Source of the DNA: a virus
Virus record (IMG/VR): IMGVR_UViG_3300009446_000003
Span: 1-49,440 of that record
Strand: one strand, 5' to 3'
Length of the DNA stretch: 49,440 nt
Shown here: one piece after another, positions 967-14,112 of the stretch
How the letters are laid out: each line of letters starts with the position of its first letter
How positions within the stretch are numbered: the first letter of the stretch is position 1
Translations under genes and position numbers: made by a program
The notes under the pieces: model-generated
Seen by the model: the letters and a program-made list of their open reading frames with translations, nothing else
Databases searched by the model: none
What the model was told of the DNA's origin: nothing

Positions 967-994
967 ATGGCAAAGGCAATTGTGTCTTTGCCAT
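967..994 (+). terminator. Hairpin ATGGCAAAG-N10-CTTTGCCAT downstream of 252..953
   Basis: 9-bp perfect stem 14 nt after the stop codon. No U-tract follows on the + strand (an A-run follows), so terminator function is uncertain. Confidence 0.4.
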
Positions 995-1012
995 AATAAA
1001 AAAAACAATAAA

Positions 1013-2572
1013 ATGAACGAAAATATAACTTTCCAATCTGAATCACAAGAATTATCAGAATTTTACAAAGCATTTATTTTAGCACAAAGCGATTTTCCAG
1101 AGATAAAAAAAGATTTGTCTTATACAAAGACTTGGACAAATAAATGGGGAAAATCTTGCAGTGTTCAAATATTTTATTCTGGACTATCTTCAATCCTTAA
1201 ATCAATAACACCAATTTTAAATGTATACGACATGGGATTTACTCAACGTGTCGATGGTGCTTACCTTATAACAAGAGTTTTTCATTCGTTATCAAGTCAG
1301 TTTATTCAGATGCGATACCCATTGTATCAGCAGAACCCTAAGAGTATCCATGATACTGCAAGTGAGATAACATATATAAAAAGATATTGCTTGTGCATGA
1401 TGCTTGGAATTGAAGCAGCAAAAGATGATGACGGCATGGCTGCTTTAGATAGTGAGTCAAATGATTCTAATGATATTGTTGAAAAAATAAATATTTACGA
1501 TGTTAATTATTTCCACCACATGTATTTGAATGGTCATATGAAATGTTTTGATTTAGATGAAGAAAAGATTTTTAATTTGATTGATGGTGCATATTGCGCA
1601 AAACCAAGATTTACAGAAATTGATTTTGCAGAAATTGACAAAACTTTCTTTGTTAAGTTTAAAGACTCTGAAAATGGAAAGAACAAGCTTTGTAAGATGA
1701 CCAAACTTTCTTATCAGACTCTATTAAAGGCTTTTCATGAATTTGAAGAAACTGGTAAGGTTACATTGCATTTAGGATCAACGGACAGCGCGGAGCTAAC
1801 GGACAGCGCGGAGCTAACGGACAGCGCGGAGCTAACGGACAGCGCGGAGCTAACGGACAGCGCGGAGCCAATGGACAGCGCGGAGCCAATGGACAGCGCG
1901 GAAGTTGTAGTTGATGAAGTTTTGCATAATGATTTAAATACAGTAGAGGGACTTGAAAATGCAGCGATTGCTAAGACAGCAGCGAGTAAAGGGACCGATA
2001 AGAAGACAGTAGCTACCAAAGGAACGGCTAAGACAGCAGCTACCAAAGGAGCGGCTAAGATGGCAGCTAAGATGGCAGCTAAGACAGCAGCTAAGACAGC
2101 AGCTAAGACGGCAGCTAAGACAGCAGCTACCAAAGGAACGGCTACCAAGACAGCAGCTACCAAAGGAACGGCTAAGACGGCAAATACTAAAGGTTTGAAT
2201 GTGTCAAAGAGTGAGGAAGAAGCTATTAGGCATCTAAATCAAATTATGGATAAAAAAGCAGAAGGTTCTGGTGCAAAATTTATTCCATTTGATAAATACC
2301 CATTTAGCCAATATCTTAAATTGATTGAAGGGGGTAGAACTTCAGGTGTTCATTATCTAGCTACTAGAGAGCTGAAGAAATTGCTAAAAGATGCATTTAT
2401 TGAAGAAATGTATAAAAATTTGGAAATAGGCCATGCAAATGATGTTCCATATATAAGATATGAGGACTTGAAAGGGAAACCAACTATAAATCAAATTTCA
2501 GATGATAGTGAAGCTCATTTTAATGAATACGTAAATGCAGCAAATAAGCACAAAGAGAATGTAGACAAATAA
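1013..2572 (+). CDS. erf: ERF-family single-strand annealing recombinase with an internal acidic DSAELT repeat, a basic KTAATKG repeat and an extra C-terminal domain
   Basis: N-terminal region with ...ITYIKRYCLCMMLGIEAAKDDDG, resembling the ERF signature (tYarrY.l..lGi..eDDDg). ATG at 1013 preferred over TTG at 980 (A-rich leader directly upstream). Confidence 0.7.
   Translation: MNENITFQSESQELSEFYKAFILAQSDFPEIKKDLSYTKTWTNKWGKSCSVQIFYSGLSSILKSITPILNVYDMGFTQRVDGAYLITRVFHSLSSQFIQMRYPLYQQNPKSIHDTASEITYIKRYCLCMMLGIEAAKDDDGMAALDSESNDSNDIVEKINIYDVNYFHHMYLNGHMKCFDLDEEKIFNLIDGAYCAKPRFTEIDFAEIDKTFFVKFKDSENGKNKLCKMTKLSYQTLLKAFHEFEETGKVTLHLGSTDSAELTDSAELTDSAELTDSAELTDSAEPMDSAEPMDSAEVVVDEVLHNDLNTVEGLENAAIAKTAASKGTDKKTVATKGTAKTAATKGAAKMAAKMAAKTAAKTAAKTAAKTAATKGTATKTAATKGTAKTANTKGLNVSKSEEEAIRHLNQIMDKKAEGSGAKFIPFDKYPFSQYLKLIEGGRTSGVHYLATRELKKLLKDAFIEEMYKNLEIGHANDVPYIRYEDLKGKPTINQISDDSEAHFNEYVNAANKHKENVDK
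1781..1903 (+). repeat. Seven 18-bp in-frame tandem repeats (ACGGACAGCGCGGAGCTA; peptide TDSAEL/MDSAEP)
   Basis: Copies at 1781, 1799, 1817, 1835, 1853, 1871 and 1889. Confidence 0.85.
1966..2190 (+). repeat. K/T/A (KTAAKTAATKGTA) coding repeat inside the ERF gene, related to the repeats at 338-728 and 33385-33715
   Basis: GCTAAGACAGCAGCT / GCTACCAAAGGAACG units. Confidence 0.8.
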
Positions 2573-2625
2573 ATTAAATACCTGTCATGATCAAAGATTG
2601 TGACAGGTTTAACAAAAAAAAACAA

Positions 2626-3453
2626 ATGTTTATTTTAGAAGAAATTCCACAAAGGGTACAAATGTTACCTACAATGATTATAAGCGTGTCAGGATACCAA
2701 GATTTTATAGATATAGTTGAAAAATTAGTAAAATATGGTGCATACCTAAATTCTTACAAGTCAAATAATCAAAATTCAAGTGATTACTTTTTTGCACCTT
2801 ATAATGTGCAAAAGAATTACCCTAAATTTGTTTGTGTTAAAAATGAAGATTTTGGACCATGCATGTACCGATATAATAATCCAGAAGATTTTTTAAAAAC
2901 ATTTTCAAAGGGCGGTTATAATCTTTGGAAAAATGAATTAAAATATTCAAGAAAAGATCATATTGATTTATGTTATCTAAATTCAAGACAGCTTGATAAT
3001 TTAGCATTGAGTAATAGTAAGATGTTTAATCCATTTGACCAATTTTATCCATCTTCAGAAGATAGATTGCCACATTGTCCTTATGTGAAGAAGTGGGGAG
3101 ATTTTAAATATTTCGATTACTGCGATGAATACAAAAGCAAGATAATTGTAAAGCGTGTTAAAAATCGTTTTGATTTTTTCCAAAATGAAAAAACTTTTGA
3201 TACTTGGATAAAGCCATACAACAAAGACTTTATCAAGCAACCAATGAATAAAAAGAAAATTCCTAAAATACTAAATGTTCAATATTCAAAACTTTGGCTA
3301 TCAGAGCAACAGTACATACAGGAACAGGTAAAAAAGTTACCTTCTGATTCTTTGGCAATTGCAATAATTGAACGGTTCAATAAAAGGTTTGCGGTATCAA
3401 CATTGCATCCAGACAATAAGCTTTATTATACTACATTTAGAAAATCAAATTAA
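2626..3453 (+). CDS. Hypothetical protein
   Basis: Long ORF in the same-strand block. ATG at 2626 follows AAAAAAAAACAA. The upstream ATG at 2587 lies inside a hairpin (CCTGTCA...TGACAGG, 2581-2607), so the start is uncertain. Confidence 0.55.
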   Translation: MFILEEIPQRVQMLPTMIISVSGYQDFIDIVEKLVKYGAYLNSYKSNNQNSSDYFFAPYNVQKNYPKFVCVKNEDFGPCMYRYNNPEDFLKTFSKGGYNLWKNELKYSRKDHIDLCYLNSRQLDNLALSNSKMFNPFDQFYPSSEDRLPHCPYVKKWGDFKYFDYCDEYKSKIIVKRVKNRFDFFQNEKTFDTWIKPYNKDFIKQPMNKKKIPKILNVQYSKLWLSEQQYIQEQVKKLPSDSLAIAIIERFNKRFAVSTLHPDNKLYYTTFRKSN

Positions 3454-3454
3454 A

Positions 3455-4762
3455 ATGCCTAAAGTAATAAAGCCAAGACTTCACCAAAAAAAATGCAAGG
3501 AAAATGTATTGAAGCATTTTGAAAATTATGACAGGGCATTAGGTGTCATGCCTTGTGGCAGTGGTAAAACAATCACTTCTTTATTAATCGCTAAAGAAAT
3601 GAATGCACAAAGTTTGATCTATGCGGTTCCTACGCTAAAGTTGCAAGAACAGGCTTTGAGTGTTATTGACTCTTTGGAATTGCTAGGATTGAATTGTGAA
3701 GTGTTTTGTATAGGATCAAACAAGAATATTTCAAAATTAAATTGGAAATTTCCAGTACATTCATCTACTAGTGTAGTTAAGATAAGAGAATTTATTGATA
3801 AAAAAAATGACGGTAAATTAAAGGTTTTTATCACAACTTATCAGTCATCTAAAAAATTGCAAAAGGCATCAAGTGGATTTCAATTTGAATTTGGAATACT
3901 TGACGAGTCGCACAGGTTGGCAGGTGTAAAGGGTAAATCTTTTAGCACTATTCTTTTTGATAAAAATATAAATATAAAAAGAAGGTTGTCAGTAACAGCT
4001 ACGCCAAAATATTATGATAATGATTTCAATTTTCTGAGCATGTCGAATAAAAAATATTTTGGTAAGTGTGTTTATGAGATGTTGTTAGATGAAGCAATTG
4101 AAAATAATATTTGTTGCGATTATAGAATAAAACTATTGTTAATAGAAGAAGAAAGCTTTATAGGTAGAAAGGTTATAAATGAAAATAGAAATATTTTGCT
4201 TTATAATCAATTGAATGAAATAATAAAAAAAGAAAAAATTAAAAAGATAATTTCTTTTCATAACAGAGTTTATGACGCTAAACATTTTGCGGATTTATTT
4301 CAAGGAAACAAGAAGTATGATTCATTTACTGTGTCAAGTAAAACTGTAGACTTTGACCAACAGTTAAGTAAATTCAAAGATTCTAAATTTGGAATAATTA
4401 CAAATTCATCTATCTTAGCAACTGGATATGACTATCCAAAAATTAAGTGTGTTATAATGAAAGATGTAACGGGTTCTGATGTGGACTTAATACAGCATTT
4501 TGGAAGAGTTTTAAGGAAAGACGGCAATAAGGTTGCAACAATGGTATTGCCATTTTTTTACAAATCAAGTTCTTGGAATTGCGTTTACAATGCTGGTGAG
4601 ATTCTTAGAACAAATATAGCATTGAAAAATATCAATCTAATTGATTCAAAGATGTTTGATAAGGTCGATATTATAAAGTCAGGTAATCAAGGCACTGTAA
4701 AAAATCAAACTTCATTTAATCGCTTAAAAAGACTAATAGGTATTAAACAAACAAACAAATAA
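3455..4762 (+). CDS. Superfamily-2 DEAD/DEAH-box (DExH) helicase
   Basis: Walker A MPCGSGKTITS, DExH box ILDESHR, motif VI QHFGRVLRK. ATG at 3455 directly follows the stop of the upstream gene. Confidence 0.85.
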   Translation: MPKVIKPRLHQKKCKENVLKHFENYDRALGVMPCGSGKTITSLLIAKEMNAQSLIYAVPTLKLQEQALSVIDSLELLGLNCEVFCIGSNKNISKLNWKFPVHSSTSVVKIREFIDKKNDGKLKVFITTYQSSKKLQKASSGFQFEFGILDESHRLAGVKGKSFSTILFDKNINIKRRLSVTATPKYYDNDFNFLSMSNKKYFGKCVYEMLLDEAIENNICCDYRIKLLLIEEESFIGRKVINENRNILLYNQLNEIIKKEKIKKIISFHNRVYDAKHFADLFQGNKKYDSFTVSSKTVDFDQQLSKFKDSKFGIITNSSILATGYDYPKIKCVIMKDVTGSDVDLIQHFGRVLRKDGNKVATMVLPFFYKSSSWNCVYNAGEILRTNIALKNINLIDSKMFDKVDIIKSGNQGTVKNQTSFNRLKRLIGIKQTNK

Positions 4763-4781
4763 ATAAATAAATAAATAAATT

Positions 4782-5138
4782 ATGAAAAAATTAAATACTT
4801 TAATAGCGACTCTAAAAATGCATCGAAAATCTTTAGATGATAAGCATGATAAATTTATTGAGTCAAAAGCAATGATGCACCTTGCAAATATGTCAAACAA
4901 TATAGAGTATATGAAATACCATGTTAAATCTATAAAACAATTGTATTCAGAGATTCATGATGTTCTTGGACCTTTGTTTGAATTTGAATATGGAATTGCA
5001 TTTGAATGTGGTGTTTTAATGTTGTCTATTACGCATGTTAAGGTGTACGCAGATATTAATGCTTTTATTCCATTGATAGAAAAAGGCAATAAAATTAGCT
5101 TAAAGGATATTCAAAATATAGACTTACATGGGAAATAA
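4782..5138 (+). CDS. Hypothetical protein
   Basis: 118-aa ORF preceded by AAACAAACAAACAAATAAATAAATAAATAAATAAATT. Confidence 0.55.
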   Translation: MKKLNTLIATLKMHRKSLDDKHDKFIESKAMMHLANMSNNIEYMKYHVKSIKQLYSEIHDVLGPLFEFEYGIAFECGVLMLSITHVKVYADINAFIPLIEKGNKISLKDIQNIDLHGK

Positions 5139-5640
5139 AAAAGACAAGAATTACCGTTTATTAATGTCAAGAAATGACGATTTTTTTTATGAAAACACAA
5201 AATTGTTTTTAGAGAAAACAAAAGAGGTTTACAAATCTGAGAATTTAGTAAGGTTTGTGTGCTTCTATATAAAAGGTTGTATTAGGCTTGATTTTGATAA
5301 GGGTAAAATGATTAAAGAGGTTAAGAAGATAAGCCAAAAATCAAATAGAGATAAAAACAAACAATACTTTAAGTTTGTTAATCTTTGGATCGGTTTTCTT
5401 TTTGAATATCCAGCATTGATTGAAATTTTCTTGCATTTAGAAATAAAAGACATTTCAATCATGGGATCGGTCTATGTTAATTATCAAGGAAAGATAATTA
5501 GATTTTCCAACCATAATAGTAGGTCACCAAAGAAAACATTTTCAGTTAAATTTAGAAAGTATAGGGTGTCAGGATTTGAAACGACAATCATTAATGCCAT
5601 AAAGACAGGTAGTTTTGATTTGAGTAGATATAATTATTAA
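5128..5640 (+). CDS. Hypothetical protein
   Basis: 170-aa ORF with an 11-nt overlap with the upstream gene. Confidence 0.5.
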   Translation: MGNKKDKNYRLLMSRNDDFFYENTKLFLEKTKEVYKSENLVRFVCFYIKGCIRLDFDKGKMIKEVKKISQKSNRDKNKQYFKFVNLWIGFLFEYPALIEIFLHLEIKDISIMGSVYVNYQGKIIRFSNHNSRSPKKTFSVKFRKYRVSGFETTIINAIKTGSFDLSRYNY

Positions 5641-5661
5641 ACAAATAAATAAACATTTAAA

Positions 5662-5985
5662 ATGAAAGACCAATTTAATCCAAAACAGGAAGAAGGTTTG
5701 ATTAAAGTTTCACCTTCGCAAATCGTTGACATTGTTAACGAATCATTCATTGTTCAAAATGAAAGAGATTCAATTGAATTTGAGAAATTGAAATTTTTTA
5801 AAGAACAAAATTCCGAATTAAGAATCGTCTTGGATAATTTTATTTCAATTGTTGATTCTATCAATAATATGGAAACTAAACCAAATGTAAGAAGTTCTTA
5901 CAAGTCTGTTAAGAATTTACTTAAATCAAATGACTTAACTATTAAAAAGGCAAGATTAATTGCGATTCAAGCTAATATGAAGTAA
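5662..5985 (+). CDS. Hypothetical protein
   Basis: 107-aa ORF preceded by AAACAAATAAATAAACATTTAAA. Confidence 0.5.
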   Translation: MKDQFNPKQEEGLIKVSPSQIVDIVNESFIVQNERDSIEFEKLKFFKEQNSELRIVLDNFISIVDSINNMETKPNVRSSYKSVKNLLKSNDLTIKKARLIAIQANMK

Positions 5986-5990
5986 ATTTG
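5960..5990 (+). promoter_or_regulatory. Candidate promoter TTG(5960-5962)-N20-TAAATTTG(5983-5990) for the lipoprotein gene
   Basis: The -7 motif TAnnTTTG matches exactly and overlaps the stop codon of 5662..5985. Only TTG is present at -33. Confidence 0.4.
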
Positions 5991-6019
5991 ACTATATTTT
6001 ATAACCTTAAATAATTCTT

Positions 6020-6490
6020 ATGAATTACAAATTAATGATTACTGTATTGATGACAGCTTTTTTAATCCTTCAGTCTTGCGAGAAGCAAAAGGACTTTGAA
6101 CAGGATTTTCAATCTTCAGGTGAGGTAAAAAACGACAATTCACATTTTTCTGAAATTCCACAATTATCTATTGAAAAGGAAAATTCTAATCAAAATTTGG
6201 AAAGATTGGCATATACTCCTTATACTATTTCTAGTTGTGGATTTCCAACATTTCAAAATGGAACTATTATGAGGACGTTAAGCCTTAATCAGTCCATTAC
6301 CTGTAATACTGGTACTACTAGTATTCGTATATGCAATTCATCTTCTGAATATTGCGGTAGGTGCTATGAATTTGATTTACTTGGACCAGTAACAAATGTT
6401 TCACAAATTACAGTTGACCATGTTGCCCTTCAAAATGCAATTGGTCCATACGGATGTGGCGGTTCTGTATTTGTGTACTGTTCAAACTGA
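6020..6490 (+). CDS. Secreted Cys-rich lipoprotein (candidate superinfection-exclusion or surface protein)
   Basis: N-terminal hydrophobic signal sequence ending in the lipobox-like ILQSC; 9 Cys in the mature part. Confidence 0.55.
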   Translation: MNYKLMITVLMTAFLILQSCEKQKDFEQDFQSSGEVKNDNSHFSEIPQLSIEKENSNQNLERLAYTPYTISSCGFPTFQNGTIMRTLSLNQSITCNTGTTSIRICNSSSEYCGRCYEFDLLGPVTNVSQITVDHVALQNAIGPYGCGGSVFVYCSN

Positions 6491-6523
6491 TATGGTGTAA
6501 ATGCTAAGATTGATTATTGAGAC

Positions 6524-6555
6524 TTAATACCCTAGTGTAAAAGCTAGGGTATTAA
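6524..6555. terminator. Bidirectional hairpin terminator (12-bp stem TTAATACCCTAG / CTAGGGTATTAA) between convergent genes
   Basis: Perfect 12-bp stem with an 8-nt loop, between the 6490 (+) and 6580 (-) gene ends. Confidence 0.65.
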
Positions 6556-6579
6556 TAAAACAAACAAACAAACAAATAT

Positions 6580-6948
6580 TTATTGATATAATTCTAACAT
6601 TTCGTCTAAGTCTCTAATTGAGTCACTTGCATTTATAGTTGTATATCTTAATACAATCCATCCTAATTTTTGAGCAGCATTGTATTTTGAGCAGTCGCCA
6701 GTGTATCCTGTGGCTGTTGTATGTCGCGATTTTTTAGACATTAATCCTTCATACTCCCAAGCAAGCTTAATCTTAGGTATACAGTGGTCAAACATCCATT
6801 TTCTTGTGGGGTGAAATTCAAATTCATTAACATAAACAAGTGGCGATTCGTCTAACAAGTATGTATCATTAAATTCTTTTTTGTCTACCTTGTGTATCTT
6901 TAATGATACCAAGTAGTATTCCAATGCACCTAATTTCTTAAATTTCAT
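6580..6948 (-). CDS. PD-(D/E)XK (Vsr/DUF559-like) endonuclease-fold protein; the only reverse-strand gene in the early block
   Basis: Motif FDHCIP..KLAWEYEG....SRH......D.SKYNAAQKLGWIVLRYT resembles D...ExEG...H...D..K...GW.vlR of DUF559/Vsr-like nucleases. Confidence 0.45.
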   Translation of the reverse strand: MKFKKLGALEYYLVSLKIHKVDKKEFNDTYLLDESPLVYVNEFEFHPTRKWMFDHCIPKIKLAWEYEGLMSKKSRHTTATGYTGDCSKYNAAQKLGWIVLRYTTINASDSIRDLDEMLELYQ

Positions 6949-6965
6949 AAATAAACATTTAAAAC

Positions 6966-7583
6966 ATGGCTAAGAAAAATAATAAAAAGAAAACTATAAA
7001 GATAGCTATTAATAAAGACTTTGAAGTTCGATGGCGTGACATTAAATTCTTTCAACCTGAAAACTTTAAAATCAATGCCGATCATCTAGGCATTGCCAAT
7101 AGTATCAAAGATGTTGGTGTACATGATGTTCTTCATATTTGGATTGATGAAAATGGTGATATTTGGTCAATTGATGGTGAGCAAACTATAAAGGCATTAT
7201 TGATGCATTTTGATGAATATGATTTACCAGAGTATTTGCCAGCCGTTGAGCATAAAGCAAAAGACAAAAAAGAAGCTATTAAGGTGTTGACGAAGGTTTT
7301 TAATACAATTAGAAGCAAGGTAAATGAAACGGTTTACTTTGAATGGCTTGAAAATGAAGGTTTGAAGGCAGATAAGGCTGATAAAATGGACTTTTATTAT
7401 GATGTTGAGCCAAAGGAGCAAGGGGGACCAAAAGAGCCGTCAAACAAAGGAAATGGACCGCCATGCAATATTATAGAATTGCAGTTCACGGATGAAGATT
7501 CTATAAAAGTAAAAAAGGAGCTTAAAAATATAGGTCTAACAGCCGAAAATGTTCTTTATGCTGCTTTATTTCCAGATGAATAA
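6966..7583 (+). CDS. ParB/Srx-like N-terminal domain protein
   Basis: IKFFQPENFKI...ANSIKDVGVHDVLHIWIDENGDIWSIDGEQTIKAL matches the layout of a ParB N-terminal nuclease-like domain (i.v...g.y.iiDGhhR). Confidence 0.5.
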   Translation: MAKKNNKKKTIKIAINKDFEVRWRDIKFFQPENFKINADHLGIANSIKDVGVHDVLHIWIDENGDIWSIDGEQTIKALLMHFDEYDLPEYLPAVEHKAKDKKEAIKVLTKVFNTIRSKVNETVYFEWLENEGLKADKADKMDFYYDVEPKEQGGPKEPSNKGNGPPCNIIELQFTDEDSIKVKKELKNIGLTAENVLYAALFPDE

Positions 7584-7623
7584 ACAAACAAAAATTTAAA
7601 CAAACAAACAAACATTTATAATT

Positions 7624-8742
7624 ATGGTAGAATTTTTTGAAACTAGAAGGTTGAAGGGAAGCATTAAGATAAAGTTAAAAAATGATGATGGTTCTTACAA
7701 GGTATGGCAATGTGATAAGTGGACTATTTGCAATGAGATTATAAAGGTTGTCAATGAATATGTTAAGGATAAATTCACGTTATCACTAAGGCAATTGTAT
7801 TATCAATTGGTTAGTAAGGATTTGATACCAAACCATGACACTGCTTATAAGAAAATTTCGTCTTTATTAGATGACCTGAGATATTCAGGCATGATTGATT
7901 GGTCAGCTTTTGAAGATAGAACACGAATACCTTACATACCTTATTATGTCAGTGGCATAGAAGATGCTTTGGACGATATTTATTACCAATACAGACTAGA
8001 TAGACAAAGGTATCAAGATACAATAGTTGAAGTTTGGACAGAGAAGGACGCAATAAGCGGAATTTTAAAGCCTATAACTTCAAAGTATCATATTAAGCTT
8101 GTAGTGAACAAGGGTTATTCCAGCAGTTCAGCAATGCATAAGGCTTATGATAGATTTGTTCCACATATCAAAGCAGGTAAGAAGATAAAAGTTTTATATT
8201 TCGGTGACCATGATCCTTCTGGAATAGATATGATTAGAGATATACAAGATAGGATAAATTTATTCATTTCTAAAGGTGAAAAGCTACGCGATATTATTAA
8301 CCAACATTTTATTGATAGTGATTATGATGCTAGTGACATTACTTATTTAGATGATAAATACCTGAAATTGATTGACAATGATAATTATGATTCACAAGAA
8401 GAACTTTGGGATGCTGGTTGTGGTCAAATGTTTGTTGATGATGTTGAGCCATTTAATGTTGAATGTGTTGGATTGACTATGGATCAGATACAAAAATTTA
8501 AACCACCACCTAACCCTGCAAAAATTTCTGACCCTAGAGCAAAGTGGTATATACAAAAGTTTGGTCCTGTAAGTTGGGAGGTTGACGCGATTAAACCAAA
8601 GGAGATGCAAAGGATAATAGAAGATAGTATATTGAATAATATAAATGTTGAGAAATTTGAAGAAATGAGAAGCCTTGAAAAAACTCATAAAAAAATACTA
8701 AATCAATTGAAAGATTATTACGTAGATACAATAAAACAATAA
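7624..8742 (+). CDS. Topoisomerase VI subunit A / Spo11-like protein (5Y-CAP plus Toprim), stand-alone
   Basis: LSLRQLYYQLV (catalytic Tyr motif R-x-L-Y-Y), VEVWTEKDAI (Toprim Glu), VNKGYSSSSA and VLYFGDHDPSGIDMIRDI (DxDPxG Toprim acidic motif), in the canonical order. Confidence 0.65.
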   Translation: MVEFFETRRLKGSIKIKLKNDDGSYKVWQCDKWTICNEIIKVVNEYVKDKFTLSLRQLYYQLVSKDLIPNHDTAYKKISSLLDDLRYSGMIDWSAFEDRTRIPYIPYYVSGIEDALDDIYYQYRLDRQRYQDTIVEVWTEKDAISGILKPITSKYHIKLVVNKGYSSSSAMHKAYDRFVPHIKAGKKIKVLYFGDHDPSGIDMIRDIQDRINLFISKGEKLRDIINQHFIDSDYDASDITYLDDKYLKLIDNDNYDSQEELWDAGCGQMFVDDVEPFNVECVGLTMDQIQKFKPPPNPAKISDPRAKWYIQKFGPVSWEVDAIKPKEMQRIIEDSILNNINVEKFEEMRSLEKTHKKILNQLKDYYVDTIKQ

Positions 8743-8766
8743 TTTTTAAACAAATAAACAAACAAA

Positions 8767-9210
8767 ATGAATAAAGTAATGAATAAGGAAACACAAACAA
8801 ACAAAGATATTTTCGATTTGTGTTTTTCAAGATTAGACATATCTAAGGGTGATTGGTCTGTTTATAGAACAGACAACAACCCTTTAGAGGACGAGTTTAA
8901 TTTAGTTGTTCATCATTCTAACGGTTATAGAATAGTTCTAACCAAAGAAAAATATGTAAATCCAAAAGACAAAAATTTTTCTTGGCAGAAACTTCAATTA
9001 AACCCATTAGAGTTTGATGAAAACGGGTTTCGATATGAATATTATTCAGATGTTGAAGAAAGCGGATATATAGATATATGCAATACTGATTTTCTTAATT
9101 TGATAACCAAAGAAAATGAAACCACACAAGAACAAAAAAAACAGATAATCATGCCAACTCAAAAAACAGATAATTTTAGCAAATATTTTTATAAACAAAC
9201 AAACATTTAA
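8767..9210 (+). CDS. Hypothetical protein
   Basis: 147-aa ORF preceded by AAACAAATAAACAAACAAA. Confidence 0.5.
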   Translation: MNKVMNKETQTNKDIFDLCFSRLDISKGDWSVYRTDNNPLEDEFNLVVHHSNGYRIVLTKEKYVNPKDKNFSWQKLQLNPLEFDENGFRYEYYSDVEESGYIDICNTDFLNLITKENETTQEQKKQIIMPTQKTDNFSKYFYKQTNI

Positions 9211-9232
9211 ACAAACAAACAAATATTTATTT

Positions 9233-9637
9233 ATGCAAATTATTAATATTGAGAAAGCATGTATTGCAATGTGCTTAGTTAAGGAGATTTTCAAATTTTC
9301 CATTTATCTAAATTTGAATTTTGAATTTCATGACAACACACAAATCGGTTCATTGTTTAAGAGCAGAAATGACGGGCATATATATTCAGAGAATCATATT
9401 TTTACTGAATGGTATTTTATGAATTGCTATGAGTCAGAAAATCCTTTGGCTAAAATTGTTATAATGAAACATCAAAGAGGTGACATGGGTATTTTGGTTG
9501 AAGAAAAACCCAATGGAAAAACAACCATTAAAACGATGGACGGTCAATTGTTTACAGCTTCTAAGGATCAGTTTATTATTTTGAAATTACAAGGTGGAAT
9601 GTTAGCGAAGCCAGCTAAAAATACAACCAATGAGTAA
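9233..9637 (+). CDS. Hypothetical protein
   Basis: 134-aa ORF preceded by AAACAAACAAACATTTAAACAAACAAACAAATATTTATTT. Confidence 0.5.
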   Translation: MQIINIEKACIAMCLVKEIFKFSIYLNLNFEFHDNTQIGSLFKSRNDGHIYSENHIFTEWYFMNCYESENPLAKIVIMKHQRGDMGILVEEKPNGKTTIKTMDGQLFTASKDQFIILKLQGGMLAKPAKNTTNE

Positions 9638-9875
9638 GGGCGTAAGAAGATCAAAATTTTTAGATAGGTTTGATATTCCATCATCTAAAGAACTAAAGGA
9701 AGTAGGAGAGGTTAATTTTGATTTAAAACATTGGTTTTGGACTTTGGTTTATGTATTTCCAGTGAAATGTATTTGGAATTGGGTAATGGTTCATATTTTC
9801 TGCTGTTCAAGTATTACTATATGGCAGCTACTTGGACTGTATGCCATTGTGAGGTTCTTTTTTAGAGCTAAATAG
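9630..9875 (+). CDS. Small membrane protein
   Basis: 81 aa, 8-nt overlap with the upstream gene, two hydrophobic helices (WFWTLVYVFPV..., ITIWQLLGLYAIVRFFF). Confidence 0.45.
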   Translation: MSKGVRRSKFLDRFDIPSSKELKEVGEVNFDLKHWFWTLVYVFPVKCIWNWVMVHIFCCSSITIWQLLGLYAIVRFFFRAK

Positions 9876-9991
9876 GCTGTTAATTTGCGTCTATCATAAT
9901 TTTGGTAGGCGTAAATTTTTTAACTCAAATTTGTACGGGAAACAGCAATTAACTATATTTACAACCGATAGCAACCGATAAAAACACAAAT

Positions 9992-10023
9992 AGTGATTTT
10001 TGCAACTGGTGCATTCATATCAA
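9992..10023 (+). repeat. 32-bp direct repeat copy 1 (AGTGATTTTTGCAACTGGTGCATTCATATCAA)
   Basis: 30/32 identical to 10332-10363. The two copies bracket the zinc-ribbon gene. Confidence 0.85.
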
Positions 10024-10057
10024 CAACAATAAACAAATAAACAAATAAACATTTATT

Positions 10058-10336
10058 ATGAGCGAAGAACTAGATTTTTATCCAAAAAGAGAAAACGAAT
10101 CCCCTAAACACAAAGAGAAAGGGGAATACAGAAGGTTTAGTGGCGAATTAAAAGTGAAAACTTTTTTTCTTCCAGATGGATCAGAAAGTAAGTTACAGTA
10201 TTATGGGTCAAGCATTGAAGGTTGTGATTTATTTTGCGGTCAATGCCAACACTGGAATACCATAAAAAATGAAAGTGTTTTTTTTGGCGTGGTAGGTGAT
10301 TGCAAAAAATGTGGCGAGTCTTGGATTGAAAAGTGA
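10058..10336 (+). CDS. Small zinc-ribbon protein (CGQC...CKKC)
   Basis: 92-aa ORF with AAACAAATAAACAAATAAACATTTATT leader and two CxxC pairs near the C-terminus. Confidence 0.55.
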   Translation: MSEELDFYPKRENESPKHKEKGEYRRFSGELKVKTFFLPDGSESKLQYYGSSIEGCDLFCGQCQHWNTIKNESVFFGVVGDCKKCGESWIEK

Positions 10337-10363
10337 TTTTTGTAACTGGTGCATTTATATCAA
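10332..10363 (+). repeat. 32-bp direct repeat copy 2 (AGTGATTTTTGTAACTGGTGCATTTATATCAA)
   Basis: Overlaps the TGA stop codon of 10058..10336. Confidence 0.85.
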
Positions 10364-10437
10364 GAATTATGGACCCGAAAGGGTTATATAACTGCATACA
10401 TTTATTAGACTAAAATTTTCTTTAGAACAAATAAACA

Positions 10438-10511
10438 ATCGCAGTCTGATAGTTCAATTTGGTAGAACGCATGGCAACGTGAAATACGGTTCAAGTCCGC
10501 ACGGCTGCGAT
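10438..10511 (+). tRNA. tRNA-like element, probably degenerate (D-arm, T-arm and acceptor-like pairing present, no foldable anticodon stem)
   Basis: TAGTTCAATTTGGTAGAAC is a canonical D-arm. TACGG-TTCAAGT-CCGCA is a T-arm with the TTCAAGT loop. ATCGCAG/CTGCGAT are 7-bp complementary ends. I could not fold the 10469-10484 segment into an anticodon arm by hand. Confidence 0.4.
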
Positions 10512-10533
10512 TTTAAACAAAAAAATATTTATT

Positions 10534-10857
10534 ATGGCAAAGGCTGAACAAAGGTTGTCAATAAACGAATGGAATTATTACGATAATATAACAAGTATTG
10601 GAATCGTTGATGGTGTTCATAAGTCGCTTGAATTTCTGCATAATTGCTATGCAAATCATAACAGAAACGAGTTAGCTTGTATTTCGGTTTTTGATGCAGT
10701 AAAAGAAAATCAAAGATCATATGCAAATACCTACATTTACTCATATGATCCAAGTGTTGTAATATTTGATATTGTTTCAAATATGAGCCTATTAGACTAT
10801 CCATCTGATTTAATTTCATTTGTAGTTGATGGAATATTTATACATAGAGATGCATAA
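10534..10857 (+). CDS. Hypothetical protein
   Basis: 107-aa ORF preceded by AAACAAAAAAATATTTATT; preferred over the antisense ORF 10532..10819. Confidence 0.5.
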   Translation: MAKAEQRLSINEWNYYDNITSIGIVDGVHKSLEFLHNCYANHNRNELACISVFDAVKENQRSYANTYIYSYDPSVVIFDIVSNMSLLDYPSDLISFVVDGIFIHRDA

Positions 10858-10875
10858 ACAAACAAATAAACAAAT

Positions 10876-11364
10876 ATGAATAACAAAAAAATTTTAGATT
10901 TGGTTGATATTCTTTATGATGAAATGAACAATACACCTGCTGGTCATCATAATTATTTTACAAATGAATATTTAGGATTGAGCGCACAATATGACGACAA
11001 TTTTATTACTGACACAATAGAAATGAATCTTAATGTTGTATCTGACTATGCAATTTTTAATTTTGTGTTTAATCTAAAAAATATAGATGATTATCAAGAT
11101 TTAAAAAATCTAGCTAAATTCATAATAGAATCGGGTTTTGATAGCAATATTGACAATCAAGTATGCATAAGAAAAAAAACAAAGAATAGTAATTCACTAT
11201 TGATTCAGGAATTGAGTAAGTCAATTCCTAGATTATATTCAGGAGATTTAGAAATTGATGAATTTAATAAAAATCTTATACCTATTATTGGTCTTGAAAA
11301 AGTCAATAAGCTTAATATTAAATTTGATAAAACATATAAACAAACAAATGAGTATTTTAGATAG
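10876..11364 (+). CDS. Hypothetical protein
   Basis: 162-aa ORF preceded by AAACAAACAAATAAACAAAT. Confidence 0.5.
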   Translation: MNNKKILDLVDILYDEMNNTPAGHHNYFTNEYLGLSAQYDDNFITDTIEMNLNVVSDYAIFNFVFNLKNIDDYQDLKNLAKFIIESGFDSNIDNQVCIRKKTKNSNSLLIQELSKSIPRLYSGDLEIDEFNKNLIPIIGLEKVNKLNIKFDKTYKQTNEYFR

Positions 11365-11608
11365 TAGGGTGGAATTTTCTTCAGAGCAATACCCTAAAAA
11401 TTTATTAAATGGAATTGTCAGGAGCAAATACAGTGGCATAGTAGCAGTTACAAATGAATATCCAACAATCGAAGGCTATGCATTAGTTCAGTGTAAGCAA
11501 TATGTTTCTATTGATTTTTATATTATAGAAATGGATTCAGGAGAATTGAAACATGTTACGTGTGATAGTTTGTTGAGAATAATTGCAGATAAACAAATAA
11601 ATATTTAA
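11348..11608 (+). CDS. Hypothetical protein
   Basis: ATG at 11348 preceded by ATAAACAAACAA. The longer form from 11255 would overlap the upstream gene by 110 nt. Confidence 0.45.
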   Translation: MSILDSRVEFSSEQYPKNLLNGIVRSKYSGIVAVTNEYPTIEGYALVQCKQYVSIDFYIIEMDSGELKHVTCDSLLRIIADKQINI

Positions 11609-12229
11609 ATGGCTAAGAATAAAGAAGAAAGACCTAAAGGCAATGGCGGTAACAGGAGAATACATGAACATCCAAATGCTAATACAAATGGACTTGATAA
11701 GAATCCGCAAAATATAAATAAAGATGGTCGTAACAGGACTTTGAAGGCGATGTTTGATAAGCTACAGGAGGAAGATTCGTGTATATGGCTAAATACCTCG
11801 TTTACAGGCACAGAAAGACAGTTTAAGGCATTTGCTAGTAAAACTAATTTTAAGCACCGTATCATAACTAAAAAGAATGATACAAAAGCCTATTTCTTAG
11901 GTGTTCAGTTATCCAAGCCTGAAGCAATGATGCTGAGACTAGATAAGATACTAATGAACGGATCAGATGCAACTGCATTGAAAGGCTTTATATTTTTATG
12001 GGAACAGCAAGTGGGGAAGGCAAGGACAACAATTCAATTAGAGAATACAGAAGATCAAACGTTTTCTTTTGATGGTCTAATGTCAATAGTGGATACTAAA
12101 CCAAAGAGCTTATCAGAAAAGAAAGTATTGTCAATTATCAAATATGTAATAGATGTATTTGAAAAACCAGACTTGCCAGTTAAGTTCAAAGATAAATTAA
12201 TTAGAAAATTAAAAAGTCTTACAAAATAA
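11609..12229 (+). CDS. Basic N-terminus protein, possibly a DNA-binding or small-terminase-like (DUF5681-like) protein
   Basis: MAKNKEERPKGNGGNRR...GLDKNPQNINKDGRNRT is loosely reminiscent of GNP.GRP motifs. Weak call from composition only. Confidence 0.3.
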   Translation: MAKNKEERPKGNGGNRRIHEHPNANTNGLDKNPQNINKDGRNRTLKAMFDKLQEEDSCIWLNTSFTGTERQFKAFASKTNFKHRIITKKNDTKAYFLGVQLSKPEAMMLRLDKILMNGSDATALKGFIFLWEQQVGKARTTIQLENTEDQTFSFDGLMSIVDTKPKSLSEKKVLSIIKYVIDVFEKPDLPVKFKDKLIRKLKSLTK

Positions 12230-12335: not shown

Positions 12336-12704
12336 TTATACAACTTTCTTGCCTTGCTCAATTTCATTTATGTAATCGCTAAATCTTTCAATCATTTCTG
12401 AATTATAAGCCAATTCGTAATCATCCAGTAAATAAGTAATTGATGCAATTAATTGTTGTTTCTGTGTCTGTGTGAATTTACTTGGTATAACGGTGGTCCA
12501 TTTTATAGGTATTTTAACCTGTTTGTTCCATGCGGTTATTAGTTCGGATTGATTTTGGTGAACAAAAGAGCATGGACATGGTGAATGTGGGCTATGTGAT
12601 ATACAATGCCAAGTTATAGTACCATCACTAGACTTTCCTTGAATATCTAACTTTATATCATCCGTACCACAAAAAGGGCAGTTTATCAAATCTAAATTTT
12701 CCAT
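12336..12704 (-). CDS. Lar-like (restriction alleviation family) zinc-ribbon N-terminal domain protein
   Basis: NCPFCGTDDIKL...WHCISHSPHSPCPC...ELITAWNKQ resembles the Lar_restr_allev pattern CPFCG...v.C..C...eAi.aWN.R. Confidence 0.5.
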   Translation of the reverse strand: MENLDLINCPFCGTDDIKLDIQGKSSDGTITWHCISHSPHSPCPCSFVHQNQSELITAWNKQVKIPIKWTTVIPSKFTQTQKQQLIASITYLLDDYELAYNSEMIERFSDYINEIEQGKKVV

Positions 12705-12708
12705 ATAT

Positions 12709-13086
12709 TTATCTTTTTACATTTAGGTTATTAAGATAGTTGTACTTAGTGGTTCCGTATATAGATTTTTCCTTGATAGGCTCAATTGAATTTTGCGTTG
12801 CTCCTATCCTTGTTTGACCTGAATTAATGATCTTTTCATTATGGTCAATTATTCTGATTAGATCAATTACCATTTCGTTAGTATAGCCTGTTATGTCCAG
12901 ATGCCATATCACAAAGTTGTTTATCTCAATGTTGATCTTCTTAATGAAAACCATCTGTTCATCTCTATGGAATGTCACATATGCGTAATCATTAGTAAAT
13001 TGCAAATGATTATCTGACTTTTTAACAAGCTCGTATTTACAGAATTTAACAAAGTGAAATATCAACACGTCAGTTATATCTTTCAT
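12709..13086 (-). CDS. Hypothetical protein (P-cassette driven)
   Basis: ATG at 13086 (MKDITDV...) chosen because the longer ORF to 13188 reads through the conserved promoter/leader cassette. Confidence 0.5.
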   Translation of the reverse strand: MKDITDVLIFHFVKFCKYELVKKSDNHLQFTNDYAYVTFHRDEQMVFIKKINIEINNFVIWHLDITGYTNEMVIDLIRIIDHNEKIINSGQTRIGATQNSIEPIKEKSIYGTTKYNYLNNLNVKR

Positions 13087-13190
13087 TATGATTGTTTTAA
13101 GTTGAATTTTACGCGGTTGATCCGCTAATGTATAACAAAGATAATTCAAACTATCCAAACAAACAAATATTTGTTTGTTTATTTTCAATA
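13087..13190 (-). promoter_or_regulatory. P cassette copy 1: 24-bp palindrome AAACAAACAAATATTTGTTTGTTT (13157-13180), TATCTTTG -7 box, GCGG..CCGC leader hairpin
   Basis: Member of the 11-copy family. The leader 3' part has diverged. Confidence 0.6.
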
Positions 13191-13210
13191 AATATTTAAT
13201 CCTATTTTAT

Positions 13211-13380
13211 TTAAAATAAATAAACAAATGTTTGTTTGTTTTAAAATTTGTTCGTATCTTGCTACAAAGTTCTGTCCACATTGAAAAATAATTTAAAATA
13301 AATAAACAAATGTTTGTTTGTTTTAAAAATAGTTCGTATCTTGCTACAAAATTCCGTCCACACTTACACCATAGGCAAAA
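13211..13380 (+). repeat. Two tandem R modules (~81-89 bp each), P-promoter paralogs facing away from the downstream P cassette
   Basis: AAATAAATAAACAAATGTTTGTTTGTTTTAAAA(T/A)T(T/A)GTTCGTATCTTGCTACAAA(G/A)TTC(T/C)GTCCACA, aligns with the P cassette through the TATCTT box. Confidence 0.7.
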
Positions 13381-13388
13381 AAATGGAT

Positions 13389-13448
13389 TATAATCAATTA
13401 AAAGCTTTACCCTCTATTATACAAGGGCAAAGCTTTTAATTGATTATA
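13389..13448 (-). terminator. Rho-independent terminator: 25-bp stem (1 mismatch) followed by a T7 run on the minus strand
   Basis: TATAATCAATTAAAAGCTTTACCCT / AGGGCAAAGCTTTTAATTGATTATA. The minus strand continues CCATTTTTTTGCC. Overlaps the stop codon of 13444..13800. Confidence 0.75.
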
Positions 13449-13800
13449 CAAGGCTAAAACCGTAGATAGTTTTGATTTCCTTGCCTTTTATTATCCTATT
13501 GAGTAACTGTCCCAAAGTGTTAGACGTTTCTTTGTGCTTCCAATCATAGAAGGATTGTAAACGCTGAAGGTGTTCAAGGGTAACCCCTTTTATTGCTTGA
13601 TCCCAATATCTATTGGCTAACATATCATCATCACTAACCCTTTGATTTTTCTCAAATCTAAGGCTGTATGTATATCTGATACTTAATTGCAATAACTCGT
13701 AAGACTTCTGAAAATCTTCTTTTCTTTCTGTTGCATACTTTGCAATTTCTAATTTAATTTCTTCTGTAAATTCTGGAAATTCTGGAAATTCTGAAAACAT
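13444..13800 (-). CDS. Hypothetical protein (P-cassette driven)
   Basis: 118-aa ORF starting directly after the conserved leader ...CTTTATACAG-ATG. Confidence 0.55.
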   Translation of the reverse strand: MFSEFPEFPEFTEEIKLEIAKYATERKEDFQKSYELLQLSIRYTYSLRFEKNQRVSDDDMLANRYWDQAIKGVTLEHLQRLQSFYDWKHKETSNTLGQLLNRIIKGKEIKTIYGFSLV

Positions 13801-13897: not shown

Positions 13898-13901
13898 AAA
13901 A

Positions 13902-14102: not shown

Positions 14103-14112
14103 TTATCCGATT

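Follow-up and report, generated by a model that had tools for sequence, protein, structure and literature searches.

A long-form Mini-A protein related to type IIB topoisomerase A subunits, encoded by a tailed Rep3/iteron phage

Mini-A proteins form a subfamily among the A subunits of type IIB topoisomerases and were described in 2019 (PMC7671362). The C-terminal xWELDAL box of these proteins separates them from Topo VI, which carries R/KxExxA/S, and from Topo VIII, which carries RVELNAM; this T2BI box is located at the A-A dimer interface, over the catalytic tyrosine (PMC7671362). Neither biochemical activity nor a genetic phenotype has been reported in the literature for any Mini-A. In vitro, the related mouse protein SPO11 on its own introduces covalent 5'-linked double-strand breaks (DSBs) and can reseal nicks, with dimerization required for the hybrid active sites (PMC11922746).

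In this study, a Mini-A gene was analysed in a window of 49,440 nucleotides, namely, the whole stretch of virus DNA under investigation (Table 1). The window represents a tailed phage whose origin is of the Rep3/iteron type. The gene is virus-encoded, as the window also carries tail genes and the gene for a large terminase (PHROG 2, E = 6e-28). An iteron replicon had been proposed in an earlier sequence-only reading of this DNA, and both the Rep3 gene and the iterons were confirmed; the replicon appears circular and plasmid-like. The designation plasmid-prophage in the same reading is unproven, and integrase, repressor and ParA were not found in the scanned ORFs of the window. DNA polymerase was likewise not detected in the 30 scanned ORFs. 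The genes for the ERF protein, the SF2 helicase and Mini-A belong to one rightward early block. PHROG 2324 and PHROG 16 were matched in the ERF/helicase part of this block (980..4762), and a 288-aa protein of no assigned family is also encoded there. Mini-A had been placed between the ParB-like and the ERF/helicase genes, but the actual order is ERF, helicase, ParB-like gene and Mini-A. The label ParB-like is backed by a weak PHROG match but not by Pfam.

Table 1. Coordinates of the features discussed in the text (positions of the window)
Feature	Position	Strand	Description and basis
ERF-family single-strand annealing protein	980-2572	+	Pfam ERF
SF2 helicase	3368-4762	+	Pfam ResIII/Helicase_C
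Weakly ParB-like gene, upstream of Mini-A	6966..7583	+	205 aa; PHROG 1033 E=3e-5, no Pfam match
Mini-A gene	7624..8742	+	372 aa, ATG start; long-form family member; ORF call
N-terminal extension, aa 1-31	7624..7716	+	predicted beta-hairpin, strands 13-19 and 25-31; model secondary structure
5Y-CAP-like region, aa 32-128	7717..8007	+	helices 32-48, 55-64, 72-87, 112-122
R56-Q-L-Y59-Y60	7789..7803	+	DNA-contact Arg and predicted catalytic Tyr60
Toprim core, aa 133-212	8020..8259	+	hhalign vs Top6A; conservation 82/82
E140	8041-8043	+	Toprim core
G194-D195-H-D197-P-S-G200	8203-8223	+	Toprim core; N162-K-G-Y165 also in core
Variable helical insert within Toprim, aa 213-276	8260..8451	+	four predicted helices (model)
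Second Toprim half, aa 277-313	8452..8562	+	GLTMDQI, PPPNPAK and SDPRA motifs
T2BI box S317-W-E-V-D-A-I323	8572..8592	+	C-terminal; Mini-A signature
Rep3-type initiator gene	47903-49234	+	Pfam Rep3_N/Rep3_C
22-bp iterons	49325-49440, continuing at 8-145 across window ends		tandem TTTAAACGGGTAAAGAGGGATG repeats at both ends

The open reading frame singled out in the sequence-only reading is present with the coordinates and length given there, and the same gene was predicted by an independent gene caller in a second assembly. The 372-aa protein matched PHROG 6247, annotated "DNA topoisomerase", with E = 1e-73. Using this protein as the query, tblastn detected the Mini-A of Pseudomonas phage NP1 (E = 2e-34, coverage 85%) and homologs in Chi-like Salmonella phages (E~1e-39); phage NP1 is the Mini-A representative in Fig. 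2 of Takahashi et al. 2019 (PMC7671362). Archaeal records labelled 'Topo Mini-A' were matched at E = 9e-13. Homologs were present in 77 phage records and numbered more than 7,590 in a 90%-identity collection, and clustering of the family at 50% identity gave 6,197 representatives. Because of this direct homology to the published set, we regard the protein as a practically certain member of Mini-A (PMC7671362). With 372 aa the protein is not short in comparison with the ~300 aa typical of Mini-A; size is a descriptive and not a defining property, so this length is no bar to membership.

General domain libraries were silent on this family. The sequence-only reading had proposed Pfam (TP6A_N, Toprim) as a check; no match to TP6A_N (PF04406) or TOP6A-Spo11 Toprim (PF21180) was obtained even at E<=10, and NCBIfam returned no match. 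This result is consistent with Mini-A being a separate and deeply diverged subfamily (PMC7671362), and the protein is not classed as Top6A or Spo11 proper. Searches of PDB sequences with phmmer and hmmsearch (the protein and a 47-sequence profile) retrieved no Top6A and gave noise only (serine protein kinase, Arp5). The relationship to Top6A is visible only by PHROGs, profile-profile or fold comparison.

All hallmark motifs that had been claimed for the protein were found in the canonical order: LRQLYYQL at aa 55-62, VWTEKDAI at 137-144, KGY at 163-165 and FGDHDPSGIDM at 193-203. Their joint occurrence in this order far exceeds chance. Residues R56, Y60, E140, K141, D195, D197, P198 and G200 were invariant in all 82 diverse viral homologs compared (~31-52% identity); Y59 was replaced by His in seven of them. 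R56 and Y60 correspond to R99 and Y103 of M. jannaschii Top6A (PMC7671362). In the second Toprim half, L284, Q288, P295, N297, K300, D303 and R305 were invariant or nearly so in this set, and this half was colinear with GvtxxDI of Top6A in a global hhalign alignment. SWEVDAI at aa 317-323 is a box of the Mini-A xWELDAL type, in which W318, E319, D321 and A322 were conserved in 82/82 homologs and the final position was L, I or V. The variable parts lie elsewhere: most of the 82 homologs have an N-terminus of ~13 aa and about one in four has ~28-32 aa, and the Toprim insert ranges as a continuum from 6 to 82 residues, with 65 in the window protein. Some Mini-A homologs carry inteins at five insertion sites, all at catalytic motifs.

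The invariance of R56, Y60, E140, D195, D197 and the T2BI residues and the invasion of five of these motifs by inteins in other homologs suggest that the protein is catalytically competent. The conservation of the dimer-interface box would fit a putative homodimer with hybrid active sites and covalent 5'-phosphotyrosyl cleavage. As an alternative, the protein could have kept a topoisomerase-like fold but serve in DNA binding or as a structural component, without catalysis. The name 'DNA binding protein' given to homologs in some phage databases and the lack of any Mini-A activity in the literature would suit such a protein, but full invariance of the catalytic residues across homologs this divergent and the location of inteins exactly at the catalytic motifs make it scarcely credible.

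Profile-profile comparison aligned the catalytic tyrosine and the Toprim acidic residues with Top6A, as the sequence-only reading had anticipated. The hhalign score of Mini-A against Top6A was 42.6 (E = 7e-5, 110 columns), whereas shuffled profiles (n = 20) scored at most 23.5. E140 was aligned on the Glu of VEK and D195/D197 on the DxD of Top6A, and LRQLYY was aligned on TxRDxYY, upstream of and colinear with the Toprim. With the CAP region only, the score was 23.3 (E = 0.007) and exceeded all 20 column shuffles, which reached 20.9 at most. A narrow family alignment compared with a single yeast Spo11 sequence by hhalign recovered the DxDPxG box only (probability 0.5%), and wider profiles were required for each side of the comparison. 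A 65-aa Top6A fragment used as a protein-search query returned only three fragments.

The AF2 model of the 372-aa protein had a pLDDT of 91.2, and the top three PDB fold matches in Foldseek were all Top6A (probability 0.96-0.98, 363-394 aligned columns), with the whole-protein alignment covering the tyrosine-bearing region. Top6A is the best fold match, but global superposition of the predicted model was poor (TM ~0.3, rmsd ~19 A) and the isolated CAP domain (aa 1-128, pLDDT 86.7) had no significant PDB fold match, with 1D3Y ranked 17 and 22 (E~2.5-2.9, TMq 0.31-0.33). In view of the poor superposition, the domains may be arranged otherwise than in Top6A, and the geometry of the dimer may differ with them. 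The BFVD viral fold library yielded nothing informative.

The absence of a GHKL B subunit from the window, as proposed earlier, holds within the Pfam, motif and partial Top6B-profile scans. No HATPase_c was found by Pfam in the 30 scanned ORFs (every ORF >201 aa and selected smaller ones), and no Bergerat-ordered motif set occurred in the six frames of the window. A Top6B H2TH/transducer profile also gave no match in six frames; very divergent B-like proteins would escape these scans. This probe was partial, as the archaeal flanks yielded only the C-terminal H2TH/transducer half; in the archaeal loci sampled, top6B lay directly upstream of top6A in 65 of 80. Takahashi et al. likewise found no Mini-B, and the B-binding part of 5Y-CAP has been lost (PMC7671362). 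Homology to the NP1 protein, the WE(L/V)DAL box, Top6A as the best fold and the aligned catalytic residues, together with these scans, uphold the description of the protein as a stand-alone A subunit of Mini-A type without a detectable B subunit. Among type IIB A subunits, Mini-A alone seems to work in this manner.

In vivo, Spo11 and Top6A are not known to act without B-type partners, a pairing that would speak for an undiscovered 'Mini-B', namely, a divergent non-GHKL phage or host protein that gates or targets cleavage. Such pairing also features in PMC11922746, the possibility of a Mini-B was left open by Takahashi et al. (PMC7671362), and the gene is surrounded by many small ORFs without assigned function. 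However, none of the genes found within +-6 kb of Mini-A accompanies it consistently across the 84 loci, no Pfam family recurs in the 122 directly adjacent genes, the window has no transducer or Bergerat signal, and the B-interacting N-terminal CAP segment is absent (PMC7671362). SPO11 alone is moreover catalytically sufficient in vitro (PMC11922746). A dependence on such a partner is thus quite unlikely in our estimate.

Another alternative is a true ATP-independent topoisomerase, which would cleave, pass or swivel, and religate DNA, relaxing supercoils or decatenating daughter circles with no persistent break. Strand passage by type IIB enzymes requires an ATP-operated B-subunit gate, as in Topo VI, but no B subunit was found here and the 5Y-CAP part that would bind it is missing (PMC7671362). 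Host topoisomerases already provide such functions, and Mini-A also occurs in viruses with linear genomes, e.g. HCIV-1. These points weigh against a topoisomerase in spite of the homology to the cleavage-religation core of Topo VI, the need of an apparently circular, plasmid-like replicon for decatenation, the nick resealing by SPO11 (PMC11922746) and the placement of Mini-A among topoisomerases of mobile genetic elements in reviews. We consider this explanation unlikely.

The neighbourhoods of Mini-A were compared in 84 loci (+-6 kb). Only Mini-A itself was conserved, and the next-largest cluster was present in eight loci. None of the neighbours of Mini-A in the window recurred beside Mini-A in the 83 other loci. 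A role in partition had been hinted at on account of the ParB-like neighbour, and this hint was not borne out, as that gene is absent beside Mini-A in those 83 loci; it is regarded as incidental because no neighbouring gene is conserved across the 84. A ParB-like functional partner, e.g. an NTP-gated clamp replacing Top6B, was rejected likewise, with no recurrence and a ParB-related domain in one of the 122 neighbours. The lack of a conserved neighbour also means that Mini-A has no specific tie to ERF, Rep3 or iterons. Genes that recurred within +-6 kb encoded helicases, primase-helicases, DnaB-like, SbcC-like, RecA-like and RecB-like proteins and ligase. A link to 7-deazaguanine DNA modification was considered (QueE, FolE and QueD are encoded near some homologs, and NP1 belongs to Queuovirinae), and it is not general because few loci show these genes. 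A 658-aa ORF in one locus (L159) resembled a fusion partner for Mini-A but was rejected as an artefact of high-GC DNA, in which the frame stays open ahead of the true start and yields a sequence rich in Arg, Ala and Pro.

Movement among unrelated phages with no fixed neighbours, as seen in accessory genes, would also suit a host-directed or conflict nuclease (one that degrades host DNA, excludes superinfecting phages or counters defence) in place of a replication factor, and Toprim nucleases such as OLD, GajA, AriB and JetD are frequent in defence systems. However, PADLOC assigned no family to Mini-A or its neighbours (0 families at E<=0.1), and nucleases of the JetD/OLD/GajA/AriB type were not among the top 50 PDB fold matches. 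The absolutely conserved topoisomerase-type Tyr/Arg and T2BI box argue for covalent catalysis and against simple hydrolysis, replication genes are the usual neighbours, and intein invasion is typical of core DNA-metabolism genes, inteins being concentrated in replication and DNA-metabolism proteins (PMC4760082). A conflict nuclease is consequently very improbable.

The explanation that we favour, with reasonable confidence, is a homodimeric, ATP-independent, Mg2+- and tyrosine-dependent DNA breakage(-rejoining) enzyme that would act on replicating phage DNA. The protein would consist of a truncated 5Y-CAP and a Toprim, with the N-terminal hairpin and the 65-residue helical insert added. Two copies would dimerize, probably via the WEVDA(L/I) T2BI box as in Top6A, and form two hybrid active sites, in each of which Tyr60 of one subunit, placed by Arg56, would attack a phosphodiester activated by Mg2+ bound to Glu140/Asp195/Asp197 of the partner subunit. 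The predicted product is a resealable, 5'-phosphotyrosyl-linked nick or staggered double-strand break, and this breakage chemistry would proceed without an ATPase subunit. Taken by itself, the claim that the protein is active in Tyr/Mg2+ breakage and needs no dedicated B subunit is likely.

The target may be the replicating DNA of the phage itself, because the gene lies in the early replication/recombination block of a Rep3/iteron phage with ERF and helicase. A protein-linked break with a free 3'-OH could then convert theta-type circles to concatemer-producing replication, either rolling-circle or recombination-dependent, for packaging. This specific role as a replication switch is tentative; its basis is a gene context that early phage genes in general would share. 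More speculative and rather doubtful is the proposal that Mini-A is a self-sufficient viral 'Spo11-like' enzyme for programmed breaks in its own theta-replicating circle. On that proposal, the 3'-OH or DNA end of the break would be used by ERF-type annealing proteins, helicases and host SbcCD-like end processing, and these ends would lead to rolling-circle or recombination-dependent replication. If it were true, meiotic DSB initiation would have in Mini-A a counterpart from prokaryotic viruses, perhaps even one resembling its ancestor, and the spread and inteins of Mini-A would mark a major overlooked class of phage replication/recombination initiators.

Mini-A is a very large family (~6,200 clusters at 50% identity) without a Pfam or NCBIfam model. 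It bears on what an A-only core is capable of by itself, for which a recent in vitro answer exists in the case of SPO11 (PMC11922746), and on whether Topo VI and Spo11 descend from a stand-alone viral enzyme. This phage is a possible test case, as its genome is complete and its replication kit simple (Rep3/iterons, ERF and SF2 helicase).

Among the known systems, the Toprim defence nucleases (JetD/MksG-type, OLD, GajA and AriB) have the Toprim metal site in common with Mini-A, and JetD is distantly Top6A-like, but they have neither the RxxYY tyrosine motif that is invariant in Mini-A nor its T2BI box. The plasmid-borne type IIB enzyme Topo VIII resembles Mini-A in its occurrence on mobile elements and in lacking the first 5Y-CAP half, whereas it has a GHKL/transducer B moiety, either fused or adjacent, and the RVELNAM box (PMC7671362), neither of which was found in the window. 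Top6A of archaeal and plant topoisomerase VI (PDB 1D3Y, 2Q2E, 2ZBK and 9O8P) is the best structural match, and it is colinear with Mini-A in the catalytic Arg/Tyr, the Toprim Glu, DxD, the GxT..DI motif and the ExxA box. In contrast to Top6A, Mini-A has no N-terminal 5Y-CAP half that binds Top6B (PMC7671362) and no adjacent top6B, similarity is at the profile-profile level only, and the relative domain orientation of the model differs (rmsd ~19 A). Spo11, the eukaryotic meiotic DSB protein, shares the catalytic core and is the best functional analogy, as its A-type subunit alone makes Mg2+-dependent, dimerization-controlled covalent DSBs in vitro (PMC11922746); unlike Mini-A, it is eukaryotic and chromosomal and acts in vivo with TOP6BL and many accessory factors. 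With the published Mini-A proteins, the window protein shares the virus-encoded stand-alone A subunit with a putative truncated 5Y-CAP, a Toprim and no detectable B subunit, as well as RxxYY, E + DxDPxG and the C-terminal xWE(L/V)DAL box (PMC7671362). It differs from a typical Mini-A in an N-terminus that is ~18 residues longer (a predicted hairpin) and in the 65-residue helical Toprim insert, and the Rep3/iteron origin of its phage is a further difference from the family. The N-terminal and insert extras represent the long end of a continuum, as in about a quarter of the homologs. The 84-locus neighbour result, the catalytic and T2BI invariance and the five intein sites are new supporting observations and not a new kind of system, and the window protein is a clean, full-length, high-confidence long-form addition to the already known Mini-A family.

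The Mini-A gene opens with an ATG, and its start is considered correct because homologs align from the first N-terminal residues; in a second assembly, an independent gene caller yielded the identical product. The sequence-only reading had called this ORF a stand-alone Topoisomerase VI-A/Spo11-like protein and quoted four motifs, all of which were found in the given order (table). Curated libraries are blind to the protein. The Pfam search suggested by that reading returned neither TP6A_N nor Toprim even at E<=10, NCBIfam gave no match, and querying PDB sequences with the protein or with a profile produced noise only. PHROG 6247, annotated "DNA topoisomerase", matched aa 36-368 (E=1e-73). Matches were detected by tblastn in 77 genomes among 50,697 phage records, including Pseudomonas phage NP1 (E=2e-34, 85% coverage), Chi-like Salmonella phages, Xylella phages Sano and Salvo, Flavobacterium phage FPSV (39% identity), Listeria phage LWP01 and archaeal virus HCIV-1; two archaeal records labelled "Topo Mini-A" matched at E=9e-13. 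Takahashi et al. 2019 chose NP1 to represent Mini-A in their alignment figure and also cited the Chi-like phages (PMC7671362). Mini-A was defined there as virus-encoded, about 300 aa long and without a B subunit, with Toprim, the second half of the tyrosine-bearing 5Y-CAP domain and the motifs RxxY/FY, E and DxDxxG; a C-terminal "T2BI" box, xWELDAL, separates it from Topo VI and Topo VIII (PMC7671362). This box reads SWEVDAI in the window protein, and the family consensus is SWEVDAL. The family is very large: over 7,590 homologs were found in a 90%-identity collection, not one of which carried a precomputed Pfam domain, and 6,197 representative clusters were obtained at 50% identity (3,382 at E<=1e-10).

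The likeness to Top6A, the A subunit of Topo VI, was evaluated by fold and profile comparison. AlphaFold2, given an alignment of 47 sequences, produced a confident model (pLDDT 91.2, pTM 0.86), and the best three PDB fold matches of this model were all Top6A over 363-394 aligned columns, namely, 9o8p_A (M. mazei, E=1.5e-3, probability 0.98), 9o7o_A (M. mazei, E=4.2e-3, probability 0.96) and 1d3y_B (M. jannaschii, E=9.5e-3, probability 0.96), followed by the T7 primase Toprim (E=0.17). Global superposition gave a TM of only about 0.3 and an rmsd of about 19 A; the two-domain orientation of the monomer model therefore differs from that of Top6A. When modelled by itself (pLDDT 86.7), the N-terminal domain had no significant match in the PDB fold search; 1D3Y ranked only 17th and 22nd (non-significant, E about 2.5-2.9), although with the highest query TM-score listed. 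For hhalign, a Top6A profile (70-odd full-length sequences, 80 archaeal loci, seeded with PDB-verified Toprim segments) was compared with a Mini-A profile (82 sequences from viral contigs and phages). The Toprim region scored 42.6 (E=7e-5, 110 columns) against 12.9-23.5 for 20 column shuffles and 14.8 for the reversed control, and the CAP region by itself scored 23.3 (E=0.007, 25 columns) against 10.0-20.9 and 13.0, respectively. The catalytic residues were in register: E140 matched the Glu of VEK, D195/D197 matched DxD, and LRQLYY fell exactly on TxRDxYY of Top6A, so that R56 and Y60 correspond to the Arg and Tyr known as R99/Y103 in M. jannaschii (PMC7671362). The global alignment was colinear through GLTMDQI/GvtxxDI and WEVDAL/ExEAl. 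When the Top6A HMM was run against the 351 six-frame segments of the window, the Mini-A ORF ranked first with a weak match (E=0.044) in three colinear pieces. The NP1 homology, the SWEVDAI box and these matches show that the interpretation as a Top6A/Spo11-like A subunit was correct.

Conservation was counted over 82 homologs from viruses, with identities of about 31-52%. Residues invariant in 82/82 were R56, Y60, N70, D98, R99 and R101 in the CAP part; E140, K141, G164, D195, D197, P198, G200, D202 and R205 in the first Toprim part; Q288, P295, N297, K300, D303 and R305 thereafter; and W318, E319, D321 and A322 in the T2BI box. Position 59 is His in seven homologs, and Y60 is therefore the catalytic candidate; the presence, position and invariance of the tyrosine motif are established. 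This conservation contradicts the explanation that Mini-A is a dead DNA-binding protein. Inteins lengthen 7 of the best 150 representatives to 533-831 aa, and Pfam Intein_splicing, Hint or LAGLIDADG domains were found in six of the seven; most carry LAGLIDADG homing endonucleases. The inteins occupy five different sites, every one within an invariant motif, which supports the functional importance of the motifs and the protein. Inteins are known to be enriched among proteins of replication and DNA metabolism (PMC4760082), and no mention of them in Mini-A is made by Takahashi et al. (PMC7671362).

The window protein has 31 rather than 13 residues ahead of the first CAP helix, with a predicted beta-hairpin, and a 65-residue helical insert between residues 212 and 277. 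Among family members the insert segment forms a continuum of lengths, 6-82 residues, and its length correlates only partially with that of the N-terminal extension (r=0.57). The protein is a long-form family member and not a separate kind. Cys-rich, zinc-ribbon-like C-terminal tails occur in some homologs (P0174, P0136 and P0212), which suggests that part of the family has gained a further module for DNA binding.

The absence of a B subunit from the window, as originally claimed, was upheld. HATPase_c was absent by Pfam in 30 window ORFs (all those above 201 aa plus some shorter ones), the Bergerat-ordered N/G1/G2 motif set was absent from every frame, and a search of the window with a Top6B H2TH/transducer profile, made from 67 archaeal loci, was negative (best, a 41-aa junk ORF at E=0.2). 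Neighbourhoods of +-6 kb, 1,808 ORFs in all, were compared across 84 loci with Mini-A: the window itself, plus 80 from viral contigs and three from phages. Mini-A formed a cluster found in 80 loci, and the next clusters, including SF2 helicases, QueE and TerL (the large terminase), occurred in only 8, 7, 5 and 5 loci, with no fixed position. None of the window's own neighbours recurred at the other loci, and no Pfam family was seen twice among 122 immediate neighbours. By contrast, top6B lay directly upstream of top6A in 65 of 80 sampled archaeal loci. Mini-A thus travels alone, which speaks against the rival that it depends on an undiscovered partner. The ParB-like gene, taken earlier as a hint of Mini-A's role, is incidental, and its label rests on a weak PHROG match. 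A conflict nuclease was also considered, and PADLOC gave no match. QueE/FolE/QueD genes (7-deazaguanine/queuosine precursors) lie near some Mini-A genes or in Queuovirinae phages (L001, which is NP1; L002, Salmonella phage SPN19; several IMG/VR loci), an association that is probably coincidental because it involves few loci. An apparent 658-aa Mini-A fusion at one compared locus (L159:4945-6921) was rejected as an ORF-calling artefact, an Arg/Ala/Pro-rich read-through in high-GC DNA; the true start is MKKCF...

Features of the window and the Mini-A protein (aa, residues of the window protein; intein sites are those of the homologs named)
Feature	Position	Strand	Remarks
22-bp iterons TTTAAACGGGTAAAGAGGGATG	49325-49440 and 8-145		at least 11 tandem copies, after Rep3 gene
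Rightward early block	252-12229	+	ERF-family annealing protein, SF2 helicase, weakly ParB-like gene, Mini-A
ORF directly after iterons	252-953	+	Lys/Ala/Thr-rich; 9-aa tandem repeats KTAATKTAT / KKDEAKTAT
ERF-family protein	980-2572	+	530 aa, unusually long
PHROG 503 match (unknown function)	6580-6948	-	E=7e-23
Mini-A gene	7624-8742	+	372 aa
LRQLYYQL	aa 55-62		
VWTEKDAI	aa 137-144		
KGY	aa 163-165		
FGDHDPSGIDM	aa 193-203		
T2BI box	aa 317-323		
Intein site	W138|T139		just ahead of E140; P0133, P0182
Intein site	Y165|S166		NKGY|SS; P0219
Intein site	Y192|F193		ahead of GDHD; P0245
Intein site	P198|S199		within GDHDP|SG; P0212
Intein site	K300|		PNPAK|xxD; P0217, P0230
Leftward block	12336-17831	-	
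Lar-like restriction-alleviation match	12336-12704	-	weak; leftward block
DUF2786/DUF7168	14438-15169	-	leftward block
DUF3560	16389-17072	-	leftward block
24-bp perfect palindrome AAACAAACAAATATTTGTTTGTTT	13157-18444 (11 sites), 46886-46909, 47409-47432		
Large terminase	19820-21115		tail genes also present
Di-haem cytochrome c peroxidase (CCP_MauG) domain ORF	45754-46638	+	
Rep3-type (Rep3-family) initiator gene	47903-49234		Pfam

The window is a tailed phage with no close cultured relative; its closest terminase matches (Cellulophaga and Flavobacterium phages, 27-35% identity) and its GC content of 30% suggest a Bacteroidota host. The Rep3 gene and iterons form a plasmid-type theta origin, and the iteron array leaves the right end and continues at the left; a circular or circularly permuted molecule is therefore probable. 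The iteron replicon proposed earlier was thus borne out, while its status as a plasmid-prophage is possible but unproven: the window ORFs searched yielded no DNA polymerase, integrase, repressor or ParA. The ORF following the iterons, whose 27-nt periodicity appears in a repeat finder, resembles histone H1/HC2 and possibly encodes a DNA-coating or origin-binding protein; a weak HC2-like Lys-rich region also follows the ERF domain of the ERF-family protein (aa 327-404). The PHROG 503 gene lies directly upstream of the ParB-like gene and is the sole leftward gene of the early block; it might be mobile and have been inserted there. The leftward block is a possible anti-restriction or early takeover module. 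The palindrome occurs 13 times at <=3 mismatches (0 expected by chance), mainly intergenically in this block and also upstream of ORFs 46980 and 47498, with none of the 13 near Mini-A; the sites look like an operator or promoter regulon. The CCP_MauG ORF, between the tail genes and the Rep3 region, is an unusual phage cargo gene.

As judged by alignment, the window protein carries the full type IIB A-subunit catalytic equipment under strong purifying selection, and no dedicated partner was detected. Active sites of Top6A/Spo11 are hybrid: the Tyr comes from one protomer and the Toprim metal site from its counterpart. The T2BI box is located at the A-A interface, beside the Tyr (PMC7671362), and mouse SPO11 alone is described as forming covalent 5'-linked DSBs in vitro, with dimerization required and nicks resealable (PMC11922746). 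We infer that Mini-A is a homodimeric, ATP-independent Tyr60/Mg2+ enzyme of DNA breakage, perhaps with rejoining; an ATP-independent relaxase or decatenase is the rival form of such an activity. The phage would start theta replication with Rep3, has no detectable polymerase and has to provide concatemers to its terminase; a protein-linked break with a free 3'-OH made by Mini-A could plausibly trigger rolling-circle or ERF-driven recombination-dependent replication. This role extends the rolling-circle-initiator idea proposed for skuldvirus Mini-A and repeated in 2026. We regard it as rather unlikely that Mini-A is a viral Spo11-like programmed-break enzyme switching replication mode. Mini-A function was still termed unexplored in reviews up to December 2024, and the window protein offers a clean test case for it. 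It is a somewhat decorated new member of the family described in 2019 and not a new kind of system.
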